From contig CAZQXN010000004.1 of the NCBI GenBank assembly GCA_964597545.1, positions 6,683 to 70,682 on the forward strand: a stretch of 64,000 bases of DNA, in the 5' to 3' direction. Origin of the DNA: an uncultured Planctomycetia bacterium. GTDB taxonomy: Bacteria; Omnitrophota; Gorgyraeia; 1-14-0-20-64-10. The notes under the pieces were generated by a model. That model worked only from the letters and a program-made list of their open reading frames with translations. It was not told the origin of the DNA and ran no database searches. The position numbers and the translations under genes are program-made. Each line of letters opens with the position of its first letter. Within the stretch, counting starts at the first letter, position 1. Of this stretch, positions 39,139-61,645 are shown in pieces.

Positions 39139-39176
39139 TCGACTCCAACCATTGAACGTTGAACTGAACAACAAAA

Positions 39177-39213
39177 AGGGGTTCCTCTAGCCGGAGGGAC
39201 CCCTTTTTTTCTT
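39177..39213 (+). terminator. Rho-independent terminator
   Basis: AGGGGTTCCTCtagccgGAGGGACCCCT followed by T9. Confidence 0.7.
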
Positions 39214-39322
39214 TGAGGGCACAACTTACGGAAGCTCGAAGAGCTTTCGTAAGTTGACCGCCCGAAAAGATCCCGGCCCGACCGACAGGGAGTGGTCGGG
39301 GTACATTTGAAGAGGAGCGTCG

Positions 39323-40360
39323 ATGCGTATCGGAATGACCTATGACCTGAGAACAAGCTACCTCTTCAGGTCTGGCGATCCCAAGGATGCCAACGCAGAG
39401 TTTGATCATCCAGACACCGTCCAAGTGATTGCAGATGCCCTGACGGCGCTCGGGCATGAGGTCATTCGCATTGGCAATGTCGAGCAGCTGCTCGCCCGAC
39501 TGGACCGCCTAGAAGCGGATCTGGTCTTCAACATTGCTGAAGGGTATGCCGGGCGCAACCGGGAATCCCAAGTGCCGATCCTGCTGGAGCTTCGTGGGTT
39601 TCCTTACGTCGGTTCCGACGGCCTCACCCAGGCGGCAACACTCGACAAGTTGGTGACCAAGCGGCTCCTCAAGGCGGAGGGCATCCCGACCCCCGACTTT
39701 TTCCAGATTCACGATCCCAACGAGCTCCTTCCCAAGAATCTCACCTTCCCCTTGATGGCCAAGCCCCGCTATGAAGGCTCCAGCAAGGGGCTCTCTGAGC
39801 AGTCGATTGTTCGCTCCGAAGAGGAGCTCAGATCGCAGGCGGCATGGATCATTGAAACCTATCATCAGCCGGCGCTGGTGGAGGCCTTCATCTGCGGCAC
39901 CGAGTACACCATTGCCCTCATCGGAAACAACACCCCCGAGACCCTGCCAACCGTCCAGATTCAGATCGACGGCAAACTCAAGCTCGGAGAGCTCTTTTAT
40001 ACCCATTCCAGAATCGCCGCGGGGGCAGATTACATCTGCCCGGCTCAGATCGATGCCAAGCTTGATGGGCGCCTCAAGGCTTTGGCGCAGGCCACCTACC
40101 GTGCGGTAGACTGCTTGGACTTCGGACGGGTTGATTTTCGAGTGGATGAAGCAGGCCGCCCCTATGTCCTGGAGCTCAATCCCTTACCGTCTCTCTCCAC
40201 CGAGGATGTCTTTATGATTGTGGCGAAGCAGATGGGATTGGGCTACGCCGACATGATTGGACGGATTGTGGATGCAGCGGTTACGCGCCAAGGGTTACAG
40301 GTTCTGTCCCGTCCGGAGAATGCACCGGCTGCAGTGGCTGTCACAGGGAGCGCTCGATGA
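39323..40360 (+). CDS. D-Ala-D-Ala-ligase-like ATP-grasp enzyme (L-amino-acid-ligase-like), paralog 1
   Basis: Ddl-family organisation: N-domain, LMAKPRYEGSSKG central motif, C-terminal RVDFRVDEAGRPYVLELNPLP. Confidence 0.7.
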   Translation: MRIGMTYDLRTSYLFRSGDPKDANAEFDHPDTVQVIADALTALGHEVIRIGNVEQLLARLDRLEADLVFNIAEGYAGRNRESQVPILLELRGFPYVGSDGLTQAATLDKLVTKRLLKAEGIPTPDFFQIHDPNELLPKNLTFPLMAKPRYEGSSKGLSEQSIVRSEEELRSQAAWIIETYHQPALVEAFICGTEYTIALIGNNTPETLPTVQIQIDGKLKLGELFYTHSRIAAGADYICPAQIDAKLDGRLKALAQATYRAVDCLDFGRVDFRVDEAGRPYVLELNPLPSLSTEDVFMIVAKQMGLGYADMIGRIVDAAVTRQGLQVLSRPENAPAAVAVTGSAR

Positions 40361-41586
40361 GAGTTGCCCTCATCCATAACGTCAAGCCCAAGAAGAAGCT
40401 TCCGGATCTGCCCTTTGATTACTATTCGGAGTGTGACAGCCCCGCAACAGTTTCCGCCATTGCCAAAGCACTCCGGCGCCAAAGATTCACTGTTTTACCG
40501 GTTGAGGCGAATCATCGTCTTCCGGCGTGGCTCAAGCGCAACCACGTGGATTTGGCCTTCAACATTGCCGAAGGTTTCTACGGCGATGCGCGGGAGGCCC
40601 GCGTGCCGGCCCTCCTGGAGTTGTTGGAGATTCCCTACACCGGTTCCGGGGTTCTTGCTTTGGTCTTGGCGTTGGACAAGAACAAGGCCAAGCATTTGTT
40701 CCGCTCGGCCGGGGTTCCGACCCCCAACTTCCAGCTCTTCCTCCATCCCGACGAACCGATCAAGCGCCAGCTGCAATTTCCGCTGATCGTCAAACCCAAC
40801 CGGGAAGGTTCCGGCAAAGGGATTTGGGCCTCCAGCGTGGTCCACGACGAGAAGGCTTTTCGGACCCAGCTGCGGTTGGTCCACGATCGCTATGCCCAGG
40901 AAGTCTTGGTTGAGGAGTACATTGAAGGGACGGAGTTGACGGTGGGCCTGCTGGGAGGCGATGAGGTCCTGCCGGTTCTGGAGGTGGATTTCAGCGGGTG
41001 CGAATCTTCAGGGGAATTCTTCTACTCCTGGCGGATGAAAGAGTTCCAGGGCAATCAGGAGATGGGGCTCACCCCCAGCTTCTGGTGCCCGGCACGCTTG
41101 GATCCCGGGATGACCCAAGCGGTCCAATCGGTGGCCTGGAGGGCTGCCCGGGCTCTGGGGGCCAATGAGTTGGCGCGGGTGGATATCCGCTTAAGCTCCG
41201 ACGGCATTCCCTATGTCCTGGAGGTCAATCCCCTCCCGGGGTTGGATCCGGCGGAGTCCAACCTGCCGCTGATGGCAAAGGCGGCGGGGATGTCGTACGA
41301 CACCCTGATTCAGCGAATCGTCACACTCGCCGTTTCGAATCGCACCCTGCGCTCTGGACGCATGGCACACTTAAAAGCCATTCCTCCGAAAGCGGGAGCT
41401 TCTTTATCTTCTCCATCTTCCCAGAAAGCTCACTCGACCCTGAGGCGCTCAAAGAAGCGCCCCCTGACGCCTGCCAAGAAAGGGTCGGGTTCCGCGGGAG
41501 AAGCTGTTGCGGTGCGCAGCACTTCAAGACGGCGCACCCTCTCCCCTCGGAAAACCCAAGCAAAGGAGGGACGCCTTGGACGATAG
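40357..41586 (+). CDS. D-Ala-D-Ala-ligase-like ATP-grasp enzyme, paralog 2, with a roughly 90-aa Ser/Arg/Lys-rich C-terminal tail
   Basis: LIVKPNREGSGKG and RVDIRLSSDGIPYVLEVNPLPG. ATGA overlap with paralog 1. Confidence 0.7.
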   Translation: MRVALIHNVKPKKKLPDLPFDYYSECDSPATVSAIAKALRRQRFTVLPVEANHRLPAWLKRNHVDLAFNIAEGFYGDAREARVPALLELLEIPYTGSGVLALVLALDKNKAKHLFRSAGVPTPNFQLFLHPDEPIKRQLQFPLIVKPNREGSGKGIWASSVVHDEKAFRTQLRLVHDRYAQEVLVEEYIEGTELTVGLLGGDEVLPVLEVDFSGCESSGEFFYSWRMKEFQGNQEMGLTPSFWCPARLDPGMTQAVQSVAWRAARALGANELARVDIRLSSDGIPYVLEVNPLPGLDPAESNLPLMAKAAGMSYDTLIQRIVTLAVSNRTLRSGRMAHLKAIPPKAGASLSSPSSQKAHSTLRRSKKRPLTPAKKGSGSAGEAVAVRSTSRRRTLSPRKTQAKEGRLGR

Positions 41587-42841
41587 CACTCGTCGCATCC
41601 CCCTCTGGAAGCATGTGCGCCCAGAGGATTGGGAAGACTGGCATTGGCAGTTGCGAAACCGCATCACCACGGTGGATCAATTACGCCGGATTGTCTCATT
41701 GACCCCCGAGGAAGAGTATGCGTGTGCCCAGCGAGAGGGCCGACTCGTCATGGCCATCCCCCCTTACTGGGCCTCTCTCATGGATCCGAAGGATCCCAAC
41801 TGTCCCGTCCGTTTGCAGACAGTACCCCTGGATCAGGAGTTTAATATTCGAGCGCACGACATGGAAGATCCCTGCGGTGAAGACGCCGACATGCCGGTGC
41901 CGGGGCTGGTGCATCGCTATCCCGACCGAGTGCTTTTCTTGGTTACCGAGCAGTGTGCGATGTACTGCCGCCACTGTACCCGCAGGCGTTTGGTGGGGGT
42001 GAATCACGGCCTGGCTTCCAGTCATGAGCGGGTCTACCAGTATCTTAAGGCGCACCCAGAGGTCCGGGATGTGCTGATCTCCGGCGGGGATCCCCTCATG
42101 ATGACCGATACCCGCCTCCATCAGATCTTGGGCCGGCTTCGGGAGATTCCCCACCTGGAGTTCATCCGAATTGGCTCTCGAACGCCGGTGACCATGCCGC
42201 AGCGCGTTACCCCGGAACTGTGTGAGATGCTTAAAGCGCATAAGCCGATCTGGATGAGCCTGCATTTCTGTCACCCCAAGGAGATTACACCGCGCGTCCA
42301 ACAGGCCTTGGAGATGCTGGCCGACAGCGGTGTCCCCTTAGGTTCGCAGACGGTGCTCTTAAAGGGGATCAACACGGATCCGGCGGTGATGAAGAAGCTG
42401 ATGCATGAGCTGCTCAAGGCGAGGGTCAAACCCTACTACATCTATCAGTGCGATATGGCGCAGGGGATCAGCCACTTTCGCACCAAGGTGGAGACAGGGG
42501 TTCGGATCATCGAGGCTCTGCGGGGACACACCTCAGGTTATGCCGTTCCGACCTTTGTGATTGACGGCCCCGGCGGAGAAGGAAAGGTTCCGATCCATCC
42601 CGACACCGTCATCTCCTATAAACGGGGGGTGATCAAGCTGCGCAATTATGCCGGCAAGCTCCTCACCTACCATGAGCCGGATGAGGTTGAGGAGGAAGAG
42701 GAGCTTTTGGTGCCGGTTCCGGTTCGATCCAACGGCAACGGCCACAGAAACGGCAACGGCCACAAGAATGGCAACGGCCACAAGAATGGCAACGGCTCTA
42801 AGGGGCGCGCAGCGGTTAAGGCCCGCACCAACGGCAACTAA
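41576..42841 (+). CDS. Lysine-2,3-aminomutase-like (KamA family) radical SAM enzyme, with a C-terminal NGNGH(K/R) repeat tail
   Basis: CAMYCRHCTRR radical-SAM motif, WQLRNRITT KamA N-motif. Start proposed at the TTG at 41576, 5 nt after AAGGAGGG. ORF opens at 41507. Confidence 0.7.
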   Translation: MDDSTRRIPLWKHVRPEDWEDWHWQLRNRITTVDQLRRIVSLTPEEEYACAQREGRLVMAIPPYWASLMDPKDPNCPVRLQTVPLDQEFNIRAHDMEDPCGEDADMPVPGLVHRYPDRVLFLVTEQCAMYCRHCTRRRLVGVNHGLASSHERVYQYLKAHPEVRDVLISGGDPLMMTDTRLHQILGRLREIPHLEFIRIGSRTPVTMPQRVTPELCEMLKAHKPIWMSLHFCHPKEITPRVQQALEMLADSGVPLGSQTVLLKGINTDPAVMKKLMHELLKARVKPYYIYQCDMAQGISHFRTKVETGVRIIEALRGHTSGYAVPTFVIDGPGGEGKVPIHPDTVISYKRGVIKLRNYAGKLLTYHEPDEVEEEEELLVPVPVRSNGNGHRNGNGHKNGNGHKNGNGSKGRAAVKARTNGN

Positions 42842-42868
42842 GATCTAAAATCTGGTACCGTAAAATCT

Positions 42869-42916
42869 GGTACCGGGTACACTTTTCAACAGTGTACCCG
42901 GTACCTTTGTTTTGTT
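42869..42916 (+). terminator. 15-bp perfect hairpin of the GGTACC repeat family followed by a T-rich run
   Basis: GGTACCGGGTACACTtttcaacAGTGTACCCGGTACC then TTTGTTTTGTT. Confidence 0.5.
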
Positions 42917-42954
42917 GACGGATCCCTTCCGTACCTGGTACCGTCTTTGTTGTC

Positions 42955-51346: not shown

Positions 51347-54300
51347 ATGCAAACACAGAAGTTAGCCTATCAACTCACAGCACTCATCCTATCGGCAGCT
51401 CTGACGCTGCCCCCTTCTGCGTACGCGCTGCGCCCGCAAGAGAAACAGGAAGCTTCCGGCCTAGAGGAGCTTACCAAGGCCCTGCGCTTAGGCAATCCAG
51501 ACGCTGCCCTCGACACCCTTGTTCAAAGTGTCGCTGAGCGCCTCACCCTACCTGTCCCAGCTACCGGCCAGGAGGAAGGACCGGCAGATAGGATAAGGAC
51601 CCTGCTGGAGAGATCCCCCAATACCGAAACCATCTTTCACATCATCGGTCGGGATCTTCTGAGCACCTACCCCGACCTGAGAGGGTTTCATGATCTCCAT
51701 TCCTCTTTTGCTGTCGAGGGAATATCTAATTCATCTTCGGACTTGATCAGGAGGCATGCTGGGCCAGGCCACCTAGAAGTTTGGTATCACTACCCACAGA
51801 AAGCTGTCTGGATCTCGTGGGAAGAGATGCAATATTCTGCAACGAATTCCAGACGCGGATTTCAGAGGAAAGTTTACCTCTCTACACCCGCCAGGGAGAG
51901 GTTAGGCGTAGAGGGATTCCTTCGGCACCTCCTTGGTCCAGGGCAACTCAATGTTCCCAGTGAACTTTGGGATGGCGATGAAGCAATGTTCCAGGTCCTT
52001 GAAGACCTGGCGACCCTCTCCTCCGCCGGCCAGGAGGAAGCGGAACAAATCCATCAATTCCCAAAAGACGTTATCTCTGAGGAAGAATTACACCTACTTC
52101 CAGCCCAGATATTTCTTTGGGGCATGTTTCGTTTCAATCAAGTGGTTGAGGACCGTTTTGTCGTAAGGCTGAAGAATCGAAGAAACAAAATAGAGATAAT
52201 CCCAGGAGATCCAGAAGATCTTCCAGAAGACGCAGCCATGATGCGCTTGGAGGTACAGGCTCAAGATACCGTGACCGTTACGGTAGAGGGAGCGGCATCT
52301 CCAGAGATTAGAGAGATGGCGGCGGATATCGTCTCGGATTGGCTGAGCAAAGTTTTCCAAGTCAACCAGGAGCTTAAAGCCAAGCAGGCCGAGCACGAGG
52401 GTTCTTTTAAAGATAAAGCCAACGCCATCAAGAGACGAGCTTGGGACGAGTTTTCTGAAAGCTTGACGCCGCTTAAAGCAGCCCTTTCCGCTGGCCAAGA
52501 GGAGGCGGCGCTGGATGAGATTGAGGCAGCCATCGAAACAAAAAGGAGCCTCGACTTCACGCCTACAACCATTCTAAAGCATGGCGATGTCCTGGGCCGT
52601 TTCCATGGAGCCAGGGGCGCTTCGGCCGATGTTTATGTGGAGGCAGATCACGTCCTAGGCAAAGTACTCAACTCCCCCTTCTTCCTGAGAATGGTCCTGG
52701 CACAGCATCTTGGCAAGACCATTGCCGGTGCCACTCCCCTTTCAGTGGATCGACATAGACCCCCCCCGGACAATGTCCGCTTTGCCCTGAATCTTCCCTA
52801 TAGGGATTATCTTGAGGCGATGGAGCCAAGCTTAGAAATGCTGGAGCGCTTAATTGACGATCCAGGGGAGATGGTAGAGGTAGTGGTAGTGGAACCGGCC
52901 CCTCATTCTGGAGGGGCTTGGGTCATTTATAAGGGAGGCCCAGGAGAGGCTTGGGTGCCCGGTTTCATCCCTACCCGCTTTGTGTTTGCCAAGAGTGTGC
53001 CGCATAGTGCAGCCCCTGGGAGATGGTGGCTGCACTCGAAGATCGGACAGACCATTCGCGTTAGGCCGGACAGTGTTAATCGGAGGGGCCATTTTCCGCA
53101 GGCAGTCTTTGCCGCGGACCAGTCCTTTAATGCGGTTCGACGAGAGATTCGCCTGGCCGAACGAGAACTTCAGCAGCGAGACAAAGAGCATATCCCAGTC
53201 CGAGTGATTCTCGTTCACGAAGCTCTGCAGGGAGTCGAGGTGATGTATCGGAGTCAAAACGGCGGGTGGATAAGCGGTTTTATCCCCCCCTCCCGCATCT
53301 CCTTTCATTCTAAAGGACGGCCTGTCGGAAGGTTGCCCCATCTGCTTGACCGCTTGGGTTGGTTCCTCTCCCGGGTTGGCCAGGATATTCCAGCGGATCT
53401 TATCGCGATTGACAGCAGCAGAGGGCTTCCCAGAGCCACCTTCTCTGTCCGCTTGTCTTTGGAGGAAGTGCTCCAGGAGATGCAGCCAGCCCTTGAGCGG
53501 TTAGGTCAGGCAGCGGCCAATCCGAACGATCGGGTTGATGTGGAGTTGGCCTTGTTGGGCAGTAGAGAGGATGCAAACAGTATGAGGTATAGCCATTGGA
53601 ACCAGACAAGCTGGGTTCCGGGCTTCATTCCTGCGAGCCTATTCCTGGATGATCCTCACCAGAAAGTGCATACCTCCATTATCCGCGCTTGGTTATGGCG
53701 GCACCGGCATGAAAAGATTCCGGTGGCCGTAAAAGATGTTACACACAATCGACACCTTCCCAGGGCAGCCTTCAGCCTTGGACTTACAATTGACCAACTT
53801 AAAGCGGAGATTGAGCCTGCAGCCGAGCAGTTGGAAGGCTTAGGCCCGGGAGAGCTTCAGGTTCCATGTGAGGTGATACCCGCTACTGTAGAGGCCGGAG
53901 CAGAGGTGTTGTATCGCGGGCCCAGAGGAACGTGGATCCCAGGTTTTATTCATAAGAGCTACATCCGCTTTTTAGATAGAACAGTAGCTCCTCATGCCCT
54001 TTGGAGTCAATGGCTGAAAAGGCAAGTTGGCCGCAAGATCAATGTTACGTTTAATCACATCAAGCGCAATGATCCCATCCCGTCCGCGCTTTTTTCGTTG
54101 ACTCTGCCTGAGGATGTCCGGCCCTCTTTCCGTCCGGGCAAGACAGCTTCCGCTGGCCAGGAGGAGTGGTCAGCGGATGTTTGGAATCGACTTCACGCCG
54201 TCGGGCTGCATGGGACAACTGGCCCCTTGCTCAAGGAAATCATCCAGTATTACTCCAGGCAGGGGGCCGACGCCGATTTCGAGGGTGTCCGGGAAAAATG

Positions 54301-57001
54301 GGAAGCAATTGCCCGGATCATCCCTGATGCTCCGAGTCTTTCCGGTGTGGCAGAGGGTGTTGTGAGCGGTTTTATAGAGCGGGAGCTTCCCCTTTGGAAA
54401 CTTTCCGGGGTCCTCCTTCGCCGAGGCAGGTATGGTGAGGGTCACGGTGTTCTGCTGATTGGAGACGCCCGGCATGCTACAGTGAAAGCGCCCCAGACCA
54501 TTCAAATCAACCGAGGTTTAACCGGCCTCGCTCTTTTCCTTGTGGGAGATCCGAATATGAGCTGGGTTAAGCCACCACCCAAAGCTCCGGATTGGCGGTT
54601 CCTTGCTCAAAACAATCTTGTTGGCTTCGTAAGCGATGGCCAGCTCATTGTTGGCTCCAATCCCACGACAGAGAACCCCTCTGGACTGCGCGCCAAGATA
54701 GGTTGGCGGGATGACGACGTACCCTTTGGGTCAACAAGAATCCAATCCAGAGGAGAGTTTATTCCTGTTGAGCGCATCATCAAACTGGAAATGAAGGATA
54801 CCAAACCCTCAAAGATTGAGGCGGTTTGGGTCGGCTCTTCGCACGTAGCAATTCCGGAAGCGTTGGTACAGATCCTTGAGAGAATCGACGCCATTCATTT
54901 GGAGATCCAAGAGGGGGATCGTTTGGGGCAGTACCGGGAGTATGCTGGGCGCCTGCATCGAGAGTATTTTGCCGGCCTGGAAGAGGTTCAAGACGAGGTG
55001 GTGCGGCAGGCATGGGACGAATTGCGTCGGATTGTTACCCTAGAAGAATTTCAGGTTGACGATGAGGAGGCTCTTGTTCGGTTTGGGAAATCCACAGGGG
55101 CTAAAGTGGTTAAGAAAACAATTACAGGACGCCCCATCGTTACTATTGGACCGGAAATGTTCCGGAAATTGACCGCTTTTCGCCAGACAGGCCAACTTCC
55201 GCCTGGTACCCCCGCCAAGCATTATGAAGAACTACGAAACAATGATGAAGTGAATGAACCTGGCGTTTATGTGAGTCCTACCGGACTGAAAATGGCGCAT
55301 CAGGAGTTGGCTGCCGCAGGCATTGATTTTCGTTATACGAAAGGAATCTTCTTTCATGAGGCGCTGGAGGAAGGGTTTGATGGTTCCGGAATCACTGACC
55401 CCATCTTGGCTCTATGTGAACAGCATACGGACCCAAGGGTGATCGAAGAGGAGCTTCTGGTCAATGCGTTAATCGGGGAAGAAAGCGTAGAGGCCTCACG
55501 GGCAGGTTATCAATTCGCCAAACAGAGAGTTGATCAAAACCTCAGCAATAGCCAGCGCTTCTTCGCGTTTGTTAAAGACCGTTACGAGAGCGGAGGCCGT
55601 TCTACCACATTTGATGAGATTGAAGCCTCGCTTGGCCCAACAAGCCGGTATTATCGAACACTCCAATGGGTTGTTGATACCCCGTACGACCAACTCCTCG
55701 CATTGGCCCAAAGACGCTGGGAAGGATCCGATTACTCCTCTGCCGTTCCTCTCGCAGCCGGCCTGGAGGAGGAGACAACCAGAGTCCTGGCTCCTACGCT
55801 GGAAGTTCCAATTGCTGCCCTGGAAGAGGGTAATCTAGAGCAAGCACTGCAAGGATCTGCCTATCTCCTGGAGCCTAAGCCGACAACAGATCAACTCGAA
55901 ACATCTTTTGTGCAATTCCCCGGTGAACTCTGGGCTGTTGGATTCAGGGATCGAGACAATATTCCGCATCTCGCTGTTGGAGCAGGAAACAGGGATCACG
56001 CTATTGGCATAACTGATTTCTTAACCAAGGCATACAGCGCGGCGCCCGTCAGCGTTGACGTCGTTCACAAGCATCCGGAGCCCCCCTTTCCTTCGAAGGG
56101 AGATTTTGATCTATTGAGAACCTGGAAGCTACGCCAGGGAGGGCGCGTAGGCCGACAGCGCAATTGGGTTGAGATTCGCCGAGATGGAGTGTGGCGACTC
56201 CTTGGGTACGGGAGAGATTATAAAGAGACGGCAGATTTCCAAAGAGAGATTCAGGTTCAGATTTGGAAAAGAGGCGAGAGGGCGCAGAACGAGTTCTATC
56301 TTCCAGGTACTGGAGGTTTACGCGTTGCGCTTGTCGCGGACCAAGAGGTTTTTGGCATCCCGGGCCTTGATTATTTCTATCAGTTGATCGACCAGCCTGA
56401 GACAACAGGGGTCAGGTTCGAAGATGCCGTTGGCCACTGGGTTCTCTGGAGGGCAGACAACACCTGGGAATCTATCTTCGAATCACAAGGCTATACTCGT
56501 TCTGCCACTAGCTTTTCGACAGCGAGCAGGGCAGGGCCGGTGGAAGCGGCAGGCGCGCTGCTTACGCGGTTGGCCCAAGCCGCAGAAGGCCAACCCGGCG
56601 TTTTGGTGCTCACCCCTGAGGCCATCCAGGATCCAGCCGGCCTAGAGGAGCTTATCAAGCGCCTCCCCCCAGAGCTCTTACGACGGACCATCTGGTTCAA
56701 CACAGGAGTTGCCCTGGCCGAATACCTGCACTCCCTTGAACCCACCCTCCAGATCATAAAGGACTACAACACCCAAGCCCTGGTCCTAAAACTCCTCAGC
56801 AGGGAAGAGGCAGAGAAGATCACCACCACCTCTAAAGATCTTGCCCTCTACCTCCAAGAAGTCCTCCCCATGACCGTCACCTACCTTAAGGTCCTCACCG
56901 TCAAGCTGATCCTGGCGGCCCTAGGGGTTCCCATCGAACAGCTCAACCAGATCGACCCCACCAAGCTCGAAGCCCTCTTCGCACCGCTGGTAGCCGCCTA
57001 A
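51347..57001 (+). CDS. Giant secreted protein (1884 aa), unknown function, with four W[VI]PGFIP-type internal repeats and recurrent A-x-G-(L/Q)-E-E motifs
   Basis: - Signal peptide MQTQKLAYQLTALILSAALTLPPSAYA.
- Repeats (GEAWVPGFIPTRF..., GGWISGFIPPSRI..., TSWVPGFIPASLF..., GTWIPGFIHKSYI...), each followed by a basic segment and L..A.FS..L.
- C-terminal 135-aa module is duplicated at 63200-63624. Confidence 0.7.
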   Translation: MQTQKLAYQLTALILSAALTLPPSAYALRPQEKQEASGLEELTKALRLGNPDAALDTLVQSVAERLTLPVPATGQEEGPADRIRTLLERSPNTETIFHIIGRDLLSTYPDLRGFHDLHSSFAVEGISNSSSDLIRRHAGPGHLEVWYHYPQKAVWISWEEMQYSATNSRRGFQRKVYLSTPARERLGVEGFLRHLLGPGQLNVPSELWDGDEAMFQVLEDLATLSSAGQEEAEQIHQFPKDVISEEELHLLPAQIFLWGMFRFNQVVEDRFVVRLKNRRNKIEIIPGDPEDLPEDAAMMRLEVQAQDTVTVTVEGAASPEIREMAADIVSDWLSKVFQVNQELKAKQAEHEGSFKDKANAIKRRAWDEFSESLTPLKAALSAGQEEAALDEIEAAIETKRSLDFTPTTILKHGDVLGRFHGARGASADVYVEADHVLGKVLNSPFFLRMVLAQHLGKTIAGATPLSVDRHRPPPDNVRFALNLPYRDYLEAMEPSLEMLERLIDDPGEMVEVVVVEPAPHSGGAWVIYKGGPGEAWVPGFIPTRFVFAKSVPHSAAPGRWWLHSKIGQTIRVRPDSVNRRGHFPQAVFAADQSFNAVRREIRLAERELQQRDKEHIPVRVILVHEALQGVEVMYRSQNGGWISGFIPPSRISFHSKGRPVGRLPHLLDRLGWFLSRVGQDIPADLIAIDSSRGLPRATFSVRLSLEEVLQEMQPALERLGQAAANPNDRVDVELALLGSREDANSMRYSHWNQTSWVPGFIPASLFLDDPHQKVHTSIIRAWLWRHRHEKIPVAVKDVTHNRHLPRAAFSLGLTIDQLKAEIEPAAEQLEGLGPGELQVPCEVIPATVEAGAEVLYRGPRGTWIPGFIHKSYIRFLDRTVAPHALWSQWLKRQVGRKINVTFNHIKRNDPIPSALFSLTLPEDVRPSFRPGKTASAGQEEWSADVWNRLHAVGLHGTTGPLLKEIIQYYSRQGADADFEGVREKWEAIARIIPDAPSLSGVAEGVVSGFIERELPLWKLSGVLLRRGRYGEGHGVLLIGDARHATVKAPQTIQINRGLTGLALFLVGDPNMSWVKPPPKAPDWRFLAQNNLVGFVSDGQLIVGSNPTTENPSGLRAKIGWRDDDVPFGSTRIQSRGEFIPVERIIKLEMKDTKPSKIEAVWVGSSHVAIPEALVQILERIDAIHLEIQEGDRLGQYREYAGRLHREYFAGLEEVQDEVVRQAWDELRRIVTLEEFQVDDEEALVRFGKSTGAKVVKKTITGRPIVTIGPEMFRKLTAFRQTGQLPPGTPAKHYEELRNNDEVNEPGVYVSPTGLKMAHQELAAAGIDFRYTKGIFFHEALEEGFDGSGITDPILALCEQHTDPRVIEEELLVNALIGEESVEASRAGYQFAKQRVDQNLSNSQRFFAFVKDRYESGGRSTTFDEIEASLGPTSRYYRTLQWVVDTPYDQLLALAQRRWEGSDYSSAVPLAAGLEEETTRVLAPTLEVPIAALEEGNLEQALQGSAYLLEPKPTTDQLETSFVQFPGELWAVGFRDRDNIPHLAVGAGNRDHAIGITDFLTKAYSAAPVSVDVVHKHPEPPFPSKGDFDLLRTWKLRQGGRVGRQRNWVEIRRDGVWRLLGYGRDYKETADFQREIQVQIWKRGERAQNEFYLPGTGGLRVALVADQEVFGIPGLDYFYQLIDQPETTGVRFEDAVGHWVLWRADNTWESIFESQGYTRSATSFSTASRAGPVEAAGALLTRLAQAAEGQPGVLVLTPEAIQDPAGLEELIKRLPPELLRRTIWFNTGVALAEYLHSLEPTLQIIKDYNTQALVLKLLSREEAEKITTTSKDLALYLQEVLPMTVTYLKVLTVKLILAALGVPIEQLNQIDPTKLEALFAPLVAA

Positions 57002-60424: not shown

Positions 60425-60502
60425 TTGTACACTAGCTTGATTCTTGGCGGAAGAAGATATGGTGGAATCTCAAAGGGATTGAAGGAAAAGGGGGTTGCGG
60501 GA

Positions 60503-61645
60503 ATGAAGAGCAAGATGAAATTGATTATAGGTATGATAATGGGATTTTCATTCTCGGTAGTGATGCTATGTATGGGGGGTAGTTCCATATATGCTGCCGA
60601 GCTTGAGGTGGATAAGGAGGAATTTAACGAAAAATGGCAGGAAACCTACAAGGAACTTCAGGAGATTGATCCTACAGCAGCCGAAGAATTTCGCGCTTTA
60701 ACTGTGGAGGAATTTGAAGTAGGAAATGTCGGATATGTTCCTGAAGAGAGAGGGGGGACTGAGGAAATAGGTCCTGGCCCTGCTCCCGGTCCTAGGCCTG
60801 GTCCGCATGTCGGTCCCCGTCCTGATCCCGTGGAAGCTTTGAAAGCAAAAGGAATAAGTGATGAGGATATTGGCAAGATTCGCAAGGCTGAGGAAGCATT
60901 AAGCGTGGAAAGCGAGAAGGTCGAATGGGATAAGCTGACTCCCGAGGAAGCAAGGAAGGTGGAGCAGTCCTTCGGAGAACGTTTCAAGGAAATGAGCGGG
61001 TATGATCCAAAAGATATTTTTGCCCCGCCTCCGGGAGACCACCACCCAGAAGGCCCATATCACGGGCCAGGACATGAGGGGCCTTACGCTGGTCCTCATC
61101 ATGAAGGGCCTTATGTCGGTCCTCGTCCGGAACCTGGCTTCATAGAGGGTCCATATCCTGGGCCAGGACATGAAGGACCTTACGCCGGTCCTCATCCAGA
61201 ACGTGGTTTTGAAGGTCCCGTGATGGGGGGGCCGATGCCTGAAGGTCCCGTGATGGGGGGGCCGATGCCTGAAGGTCCCATGATGGAGGGCCCGGCATTT
61301 GAGGGTCCTATGATGGGGGGGCCGATGCCTGAAGGTCCCATGATGGATAGGCCGATGTTTGAAGGTCCTATGATGGAGGGCCCGGCGTTTGAGGGTCCCA
61401 TGATGGAAGGGCCGGCATTTGAGGGTCCCATGATGGAGGGCCCGGCGTTTGAGGGCCCGGCATTTGAGGGCCCAGCGTTTGAGGGTCCGGCGTTTGAGGG
61501 CCCGGCATTTGAGGGTCCGGCGTTTGAGGGCCCGGCATTTGAGGGCCCAGCGTTTGAGGGTCCGGCATTTGAGGGCCCAGGAGAGGATATAGAGCATATC
61601 CATGATGAGAATATGCCACCACCTCCAGAAGAGAATAATCCGTAA
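60503..61645 (+). CDS. Secreted His/Pro/Gly-rich tandem-repeat protein (EGPYxGPxH, EGPMMEGP and EGPAFEGP repeats)
   Basis: Signal peptide MKSKMKLIIGMIMGFSFSVVMLCMGGSSIYA at the ATG at 60503. 15-nt and 30-nt periodic coding repeats at about 61020-61600. AT-rich context. Confidence 0.7.
   Translation: MKSKMKLIIGMIMGFSFSVVMLCMGGSSIYAAELEVDKEEFNEKWQETYKELQEIDPTAAEEFRALTVEEFEVGNVGYVPEERGGTEEIGPGPAPGPRPGPHVGPRPDPVEALKAKGISDEDIGKIRKAEEALSVESEKVEWDKLTPEEARKVEQSFGERFKEMSGYDPKDIFAPPPGDHHPEGPYHGPGHEGPYAGPHHEGPYVGPRPEPGFIEGPYPGPGHEGPYAGPHPERGFEGPVMGGPMPEGPVMGGPMPEGPMMEGPAFEGPMMGGPMPEGPMMDRPMFEGPMMEGPAFEGPMMEGPAFEGPMMEGPAFEGPAFEGPAFEGPAFEGPAFEGPAFEGPAFEGPAFEGPAFEGPGEDIEHIHDENMPPPPEENNP

Follow-up and report, generated by a model that had tools for sequence, protein, structure and literature searches.

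A conserved Omnitrophota operon joining two Ddl-fold ATP-grasp ligases to a lysine 2,3-aminomutase-type enzyme, a candidate route to beta-lysine-containing peptides

What could a bacterium make with an aminomutase of the lysine 2,3-aminomutase type encoded directly behind two ligases that resemble D-alanine-D-alanine ligase (Ddl)? The question is raised by a stretch of 64,000 nucleotides from an uncultured Omnitrophota bacterium (GenBank assembly GCA_964597545.1, contig CAZQXN010000004.1, positions 6,683 to 70,682), here called the window, in which positions 39323-42841 hold three open reading frames (ORFs) on the same (+) strand. L1 (39323-40360, +) encodes a 345-aa ATP-grasp ligase of Ddl-family sequence with no long tail, L2 (40357-41586, +) a 409-aa Ddl-fold ATP-grasp ligase with a core of approximately residues 1-340, and kamA (41576-42841, +) a 421-aa lysine 2,3-aminomutase-type enzyme of the radical S-adenosylmethionine (SAM) and pyridoxal 5'-phosphate (PLP) kind. 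For each of the three proteins, the nearest homologues are found in Omnitrophota assemblies. An earlier note, made from the letters of the window alone, had described an operon of three ORFs at these coordinates, which the ORF positions confirm, and had suggested that beta-lysine is made and then ligated into a peptide. We consider it probable that the trio converts L-lysine to beta-lysine, which would then enter a small beta-lysine-containing peptide or isopeptide by ATP-dependent amide ligation. The lysine-type aminomutase, the non-Ddl character of the ligases and the linkage and fusion of their genes bear the suggestion out; that the product is a dipeptide or oligopeptide is something that we infer.

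KamA matches the Pfam families Radical_SAM and LAM_C and aligns with the structure of the Clostridium lysine 2,3-aminomutase (2A5H) at E 4e-140. The cysteines of its radical SAM cluster motif, CAMYCRHC (KamA residues 127-134; 41954-41977, +), align with C125, C129 and C132 of 2A5H, and Arg134, Asp293, Asp330 and Lys337 are identical in the two proteins, the numbering of 293, 330 and 337 being unchanged in KamA. Asp293 lies in YQCD (42443-42454, +), Asp330 and Lys337 lie in FVIDGPGGEGK (42554-42586, +), and the sequence WQLRNRITT is also found. In lysine 2,3-aminomutase, Lys337 is the PLP lysine, and Arg134, Asp293 and Asp330 bind the substrate; the two aspartates bind lysine at its epsilon-ammonium group, and glutamate 2,3-aminomutase has Lys/Asn in their place.

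Among the subfamily models, KamA scores best against AblA lysine 2,3-aminomutase (TIGR03820, 496 bits, NCBIfam cut-off 525.4), followed by glutamate 2,3-aminomutase (TIGR04368, 436 bits, cut-off 650), arginine 2,3-aminomutase (412 bits, cut-off 600) and EpmB (TIGR03821, 245.7 bits, cut-off 369.3). It exceeds the cut-off of the general KamA subfamily (TIGR00238, 361 bits, cut-off 199). A glutamate 2,3-aminomutase was rejected on its score and because both aspartates are retained. EpmB, a grouping that the earlier note had named as refuting its proposal, was likewise rejected: the score is half that of AblA, Asp293 and Asp330 are kept, and neither the window nor 88 loci (8 kb either side) gave a match to efp, the gene of elongation factor P (EF-P). 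The alignment with 2A5H ends at residue 368, the cysteines of the 2A5H Zn site have no counterpart and the C-terminal part of LAM_C is absent. In Omnitrophota KamA proteins, this C-terminal Zn-binding cysteine cluster is replaced by an NG-rich tail and a short terminal motif; those of Anaerolineae keep a CxxCxxxC stretch in the C-terminal region. We conclude that KamA is, by its predicted active site, a 2,3-aminomutase of the lysine type whose C-terminus is altered, which agrees with its first description as a lysine-2,3-aminomutase-like enzyme.

The two ligases match Pfam Dala_Dala_lig_C (PF07478) at E 3e-31 (L1) and 2e-32 (L2) and share 36% identity, so their first description as paralogous Ddl-like ATP-grasps holds. 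Among PDB sequence matches, the closest solved relative of both is Ddl (E 1e-31 to 1e-36). The AlphaFold model of L2 (predicted local distance difference test score, pLDDT, 86.6) superposes on Ddl in all three domains in Foldseek, with a target-normalised template-modelling score of 0.84-0.88 and 29% identity. The L-amino-acid ligase 3VOT (BL00235) matches at just E 2e-7 to 3e-7, and membership of the L-amino-acid ligases (BacD/YwfE, BL00235 type) was rejected because the Ddl matches are far closer. Despite the shared fold, both proteins score under every curated Ddl and Van cut-off, with 166.8 (L1) and 201.1 (L2) bits against NF002378 (cut-off 243) and 138.5 and 171.2 bits against TIGR01205 (cut-off 245.65).

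Positions of Escherichia coli DdlB were mapped onto the orthologues of L1 (119) and L2 (109), onto the two Anaerolineae ligases and onto each half of the fused forms described below. The equivalents of K97, K144, E180, R255, D257, E270 and N272, which comprise the ATP/Mg and catalytic residues, are invariant across the mapped ligases, and all of these enzymes should therefore be active. The D-Ala1 pocket is altered. His63 is Glu in every mapped member, including 228/228 L1 and L2 orthologues (E72 in L2 of the window), and L1, L2 and the fused forms have Lys for Val152. In place of Tyr216, L2 has Glu (E229 in the window) and the remaining ligases have Ser, Trp, Asn or Gln, whereas L1, with its shortened omega loop, has lost the residue. 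The equivalents of S150, K215, R255 and S281 are kept in L2; of the Glu15-Ser150-Tyr216 triad, Ser150 is thus kept and Tyr216 changed, and the Glu15 region aligns poorly. In L2 the omega loop, SGEFFYSWRMKEFQGN (41008-41055, +), is a longer one of its own kind and contains an invariant FYSWRMKEFQG. With scores below the cut-offs and with His63 and Tyr216 changed, the ligases do not group with genuine peptidoglycan Ddl, a grouping that the earlier note had likewise named as refuting its proposal. Judged by these residues, L1, L2 and their kin are a separate clade in the Ddl superfamily, with a donor pocket predicted to be more acidic. The family comprises at least 1100 clusters at 50% identity with E <= 1e-30 against L2, and source annotations often name its members D-alanine--D-alanine ligase.

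The linkage of the three genes can be traced in many genomes. A one-genome-per-species scan gave 80 loci, and all Omnitrophota loci of sufficient length (approximately 70, L2 identity 49-76%) have the order L1-L2-kamA. Five Anaerolineae loci have the order KamA-Lig-Lig, with a small GNAT acetyltransferase gene next in four of them and a weak match in the fifth. The neighbourhood check proposed in the earlier note thus finds the trio throughout the Omnitrophota loci and again in other phyla. The Anaerolineae KamA passes the AblA equivalog cut-off (543.6 vs 525.4 bits), and every KamA of the module scores highest against AblA. The acetyltransferases of the other phyla are generic GNATs that resemble RimI or PseH, and the AblB model matches none of them.

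Elsewhere the same parts are joined within single proteins, as KamA::ligase (P0402, P0414 and P0500), ligase::KamA (P0496) and ligase::GNAT (P0460 and P0510) fusions, and ligase::ligase fusions make up about one-third of the best 150 family representatives. Gene order is equally fluid, reading KamA::Lig-Lig-GNAT in L090, KamA::Lig then Lig::GNAT in L093 (adjoined by Na+/H+ exchanger and TrkA_N genes), KamA-Lig-Lig::GNAT in L094 and Lig-KamA-Lig::GNAT in L096 (adjoined by an amino-acid permease gene). The host of L096 is probably archaeal, because the neighbours encode Trm1, a TFIIB/Elf1-like zinc ribbon and aldehyde:ferredoxin oxidoreductase. The separate KamA proteins of L094 and L096 keep Asp293, Asp330 and Lys337. 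The fused ones, whose sequences were read directly, likewise keep the lysine residues, except P0496 (L091, 7171-9258), which has Gln for Asp293, is adjoined by an aminotransferase gene and may, on that substitution, act on a different amino acid. Shuffled gene order together with fusions in both orientations is strong evidence that KamA, the two ligases and, outside Omnitrophota, the GNAT share one pathway. We rejected a one-to-one correspondence of L1 and L2 with the halves of a split double ligase, because both resemble the C-terminal half more.

In the pathway that we propose, KamA would use its radical SAM and PLP chemistry to move the alpha-amino group of L-lysine to C3; beta-lysine is the expected product because the catalytic and substrate residues are conserved. 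L1 and L2 would probably work as a pair, as Ddl works as a dimer. In each ligase, ATP would phosphorylate a carboxylate and an amine would attack the resulting acyl phosphate, a scheme assigned from the family chemistry and the intact catalytic residues. Their substrates would include beta-lysine, because related ligases are naturally fused to KamA, and the invariant extra Glu in place of His63 would, we infer, suit a cationic side chain in the donor pocket. Two amide bonds would yield a small beta-lysine-containing di- or tripeptide or isopeptide. Outside Omnitrophota, the GNAT would N-acetylate this product. In Omnitrophota, two units would perhaps be added by similar chemistry, and the product would keep free amines because no GNAT is nearby. 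By analogy with the compatible solutes N-epsilon-acetyl-beta-lysine and N-acetylglutaminylglutamine amide, the simplest guess, although a weak one, is that the product acts like an osmolyte or a polyamine; faint hints of an osmotic role are the MscS-like gene just upstream of the trio in the window and its close relatives, and the ion-transport genes beside L093.

Several observations pull the other way. No GNAT was found in the window or within 8 kb either side in the Omnitrophota loci, which makes the analogy with an acetylated osmolyte weaker for the window. The flanking genes are of the housekeeping kind (EF-G paralogue, YchF, PurH, FolC, MnmE and PabBC), not transporter or stress genes. 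L1 and L2 are both nearer to the KamA-linked than to the GNAT-linked ligase type, and the chemistry in Omnitrophota may therefore differ from that of the four-gene module. L2 is 33% identical to E. coli DdlB over 302 residues, and given this identity and the retained S150, K215, R255 and S281, a D-Ala-like acceptor for L2 is possible. Fused double ligases of about 700 aa occur with no KamA nearby in Myxococcota (L005-L008) and Bdellovibrionota, and in L082, L085 and L087; the ligase pair is therefore not bound to beta-lysine in every lineage. In L005-L008, the double ligase is followed by a Peptidase_S58 (DmpA family) gene and has a divergent Nt_Gln_amidase gene on its upstream side; the next gene in L082 and L087 encodes a 900-1050-aa protein without a Pfam match.

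The genes of the trio are tightly packed. An ATGA at 40357-40360 forms a 4-nt overlap of L1 and L2, and an 11-nt overlap, called identically in the relative L001, joins the end of L2 to the start of kamA. The GGAGG Shine-Dalgarno sequence of kamA (41565-41569, +) lies within the 3' end of L2, 6 nt before the TTG at 41576. We place the start at this TTG and not at the first TTG of the ORF, at 41507, because homologues begin there with MDDSYRRIPLW. The two best terminator-like hairpins in the region mark the limits of the unit: one at 39173-39208 (+, 16 pairs and a T run) ends the upstream MscS-like gene and forms the 5' boundary, and one at 42869-42905 (+, 15 pairs and a T run) follows kamA and forms the 3' boundary. 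A sigma-70 promoter scan gave no match in this region. As predicted from its junctions, L1-L2-kamA is a translationally coupled three-gene operon. The ATGA coupling of the ligases, the overlap of L2 and kamA with a strong ribosome-binding site (RBS) and the hairpin terminator 3' of the operon had all been recognised in the earlier note, and each is where it should be. The spacer between kamA and ychF (42842-42954) contains a perfect 15-nt direct repeat in two copies, TAAAATCTGGTACCG, at 42846-42875, overlapping the terminator stem, and carries several more GGTACC motifs.

Between the upstream terminator and L1, the leader (39209-39322) is predicted to fold into two hairpins with -56.5 kcal/mol and z = -6.6. 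These stable, lineage-specific structures span 39211-39302 (+), with core stems at 39225-39255 and 39272-39302, and the second contains CCCGACC at 39277-39283 and GGTCGGG at 39294-39300. A terminator and two hairpins had been said to precede the operon; all are present, the second hairpin lying approximately 8 nt upstream of the position given for it. Searching Rfam at gathering and permissive thresholds matched no family to them. They are also missing upstream of L1 in the relatives L001, L010, L013 and L014; there, the upstream terminator is followed by the L1 start within approximately 20 nt. Without an Rfam match and without conservation in close relatives, a riboswitch or leader function was rejected, and the hairpins are not counted as part of the system.

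Each of the three genes had also been credited with a basic tail, which holds for L2 but not for the others. L1 ends in approximately 25 ordinary residues with three Lys or Arg, and the KamA tail is neutral overall (eight Lys or Arg, eight Asp or Glu) because an acidic run, EPDEVEEEEE, precedes its repeats. The L2 tail (residues 331-409; 41347-41583, +) is rich in Ser, Arg and Lys, as described, and at 79 residues is closer to 80 than to the 90 first estimated. It is unusually basic, with 21 Lys or Arg, 18 Ser or Thr, two Asp or Glu and an isoelectric point (pI) of 12, and has last codons that overlap the RBS and start of kamA. Its final 56 residues (354-409) have pLDDT < 50 and are predicted to be disordered. 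Close relatives have L2 tails of 50-90 residues that share the short motifs SSIPSS, ALPGS, PAVAVR and a terminal KEENLGR; many more distant Omnitrophota L2 orthologues (336-367 aa) are tailless. KEENLGR coincides with the overlapping Shine-Dalgarno sequence and start of kamA (41560-41586) and is probably a 'motif' imposed by nucleotide-level constraint on these signals. A basic extension recurs in Anaerolineae, where the second ligase ends Arg-rich. Given the acidic core of L1 (pI 4.9), one may speculate that the L2 tail is a tether inside a complex.

In KamA, the tail had been read as four units of NGNGH[KR]; three are of this form (NGNGH[RK]) and the fourth is NGNGSK. The units are encoded by an 18-nt tandem repeat (42731-42796, +; 3.7 copies, 93% matches). 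In the KamA proteins of relatives, the conserved NG-rich motif, (NG)n, is shorter and leads into FHxxPDYIP or EPSYALIQ, a terminal motif that is lost in the window. From this comparison, the repeat looks like a recent 18-nt expansion by repeat slippage, not a metal-binding device. The suggestion that the tails bind nucleic acids or metals is not upheld, since that of L2 is disordered and often absent in orthologues and that of KamA is a recent expansion.

What surrounds the trio differs between clades. Clustering of 1028 neighbouring ORFs gave several clade-specific types of flank around a constant trio, and among these ORFs there is no conserved transporter, peptidase or GNAT. In the window and its close relatives, YqeY, dCTP deaminase, phosphoglycerate-mutase-like and MscS-like genes lie upstream, and PabB, PabC, PurH and FolC genes downstream, with YchF before PabB in some, including the window. 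In the largest clade, M20 deacylase, PAC2 and HAD genes precede the trio, and genes for an EF-G paralogue, a YchF C-domain protein, PurH, FolC and MnmE follow it. The EF-G paralogue (651 aa, with all five EF-G domains) comes directly after kamA, at a spacing of approximately 40 nt in L047, and occurs in L016, L022-L024, L027, L028, L047, L050 and about 20 more Omnitrophota loci; after it comes a 233-aa protein with the YchF C-terminal domain alone. An M20 (ArgE/DapE) gene lies four to six genes upstream in 25 loci and is not close to the M20 gene beside an Anaerolineae cluster.

Other uses of the same enzymes have to be weighed against the small peptide. The ligases might polymerise beta-lysine, with or without a second amino acid, into polycationic oligomers or polymers with a storage or polyamine-like role, comparable to the products of cyanophycin synthetase, RimK or RizB. 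Such a repeated cationic monomer would fit L1 and L2 being of one KamA-linked type with a common acidic donor-pocket signature; a pairing of synthesis and degradation would fit the Peptidase_S58 genes that adjoin related double ligases, and L2 weakly matches the ATP-grasp domain of cyanophycin synthetase (E 4e-6). The closest fold is nevertheless that of Ddl, a lidded, dipeptide-forming enzyme, no conserved peptidase or exporter adjoins the Omnitrophota trio, and the capping by a GNAT outside this phylum suggests that the product is small and defined, so we regard a polymer as unlikely. Attachment of beta-lysine to a macromolecule seems to us distinctly improbable. The target would be a protein of the translation apparatus, modified by an ATP-grasp analogue of the EpmA/EF-P route, or a precursor of peptidoglycan or the envelope. 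Protein-modifying ATP-grasp enzymes are known (RimK and TTL), the largest clade has the EF-G paralogue close after kamA, then the YchF C-domain protein and, farther on, MnmE, and glycosyltransferase and Wzy genes flank some loci; the basic, disordered tails of L2 here and of the second Anaerolineae ligase could serve for docking to an acidic partner. In its fullest form, with equally little weight, this account would have a translation factor or ribosomal protein, or an envelope precursor, beta-lysylated stepwise in place of the EpmA reaction, with the L2 tail docking and the EF-G, YchF and MnmE neighbours reflecting the role. What speaks against it is that efp is missing within 8 kb either side of every locus, that the aminomutase is AblA-like and not EpmB-like, that the ligases have the fold of the lidded small-molecule enzyme Ddl with a longer, invariant omega loop, that the trio stays constant while its flanks vary between clades, and that many orthologues are tailless.

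The annotation of these ligases invites a plainer account, in which L2 or L1 is a divergent peptidoglycan D-Ala-D-Ala ligase and the adjacency of kamA is mere conserved synteny. The identity of L2 with DdlB, the Ddl subfamilies as its best models and the position of the trio inside a long syntenic housekeeping block are all in keeping with this. Against it, other phyla show the linkage as well, with their genes differently ordered, and there are KamA::ligase and ligase::KamA fusions; with scores under all Ddl and Van cut-offs, Glu for His63 in every member and Tyr216 lost, a peptidoglycan enzyme is very improbable. We give almost no credence to a kamA that, beside unrelated ligases, serves to ferment or catabolise lysine in the manner of Clostridium and Fusobacterium: KamA is established as the first enzyme of lysine fermentation, but the conserved neighbours include no beta-lysine 5,6-aminomutase, 3,5-diaminohexanoate dehydrogenase or 3-keto-5-aminohexanoate cleavage enzyme. 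The reading that we prefer remains a small peptide or isopeptide that contains beta-lysine.

Away from the trio, the window contains a c-di-GMP-I (cyclic di-GMP) riboswitch aptamer (Rfam RF01051; 60282-60374, +; 51.4 bits vs a gathering score of 35), which lies approximately 50 nt upstream of a 406-aa ORF (60425-61645). A 1884-aa ORF (51347-57001, +) also lies downstream of the trio. In a relative, L004 1-2351 holds a ribonucleotide reductase gene whose intein has a LAGLIDADG endonuclease domain.

Few fates of beta-lysine are known: it is acetylated to give an osmolyte, attached to EF-P, fermented or used in antibiotics. If our proposal is true, ATP-grasp ligation into a peptide would be a further fate, widespread and so far undescribed. 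The uncultured phylum Omnitrophota has the module throughout and has it in common with Chloroflexota, other bacteria and probably archaea; the fusions delimit it as a compact group of three or four enzymes. The Ddl label on these ligases could then wrongly suggest a capacity for peptidoglycan synthesis in metagenome-assembled genomes. A full-text literature search, with most subscription journals outside its coverage, found no description of a module of KamA and ATP-grasp ligases.

Several known systems share parts of this arrangement. With Ddl and Van ligases, the module ligases have in common the three-domain fold and the ATP/Mg and catalytic residues; they differ in model scores, at His63, Tyr216 and Val152 and in the omega loop, and the genes beside them or fused to them are those of KamA and GNAT and not mur or fts genes. 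In the EpmB/EpmA system, a KamA-family aminomutase also supplies beta-lysine to an adjacent ATP-dependent ligase, but EpmA is a paralogue of class II aminoacyl-tRNA synthetases whereas the module ligases are ATP-grasps, and no efp is nearby. The AblA/AblB route of methanogens to N-epsilon-acetyl-beta-lysine has the same first step, an AblA-type lysine 2,3-aminomutase, and like the module outside Omnitrophota has a GNAT acetyltransferase in the cluster. The module differs by two Ddl-fold ligases between aminomutase and acetyltransferase; its GNATs do not match AblB, and the Omnitrophota version has no GNAT nearby. For ligase::GNAT fusions such as P0460 and P0510, the likeness is to Ngg, by description and not by sequence. 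Ngg is a GNAT fused to an ATP-grasp that makes N-acetylglutaminylglutamine amide, a dipeptide osmolyte, from glutamine and glutamate; domain order and ATP-grasp subfamily differ, and its substrates are not beta-amino acids. Pyrrolysine synthesis, in which the radical SAM enzyme PylB isomerises L-lysine and the ATP-grasp PylC joins the product by an amide bond to another amino acid, follows the same logic of a radical SAM lysine isomerase feeding an ATP-grasp ligase. However, PylB is neither a KamA-family nor a PLP enzyme, the PylB/PylC/PylD pathway has one ligase where the module has two, the module has no PylD-like dehydrogenase, and no PylC chain is among the PDB sequence matches of the ligases at E <= 1e-5. 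The module is thus a member of neither AblA/AblB nor PylB/PylC, and appears instead to bring familiar enzyme families together in an undescribed and widely distributed combination.

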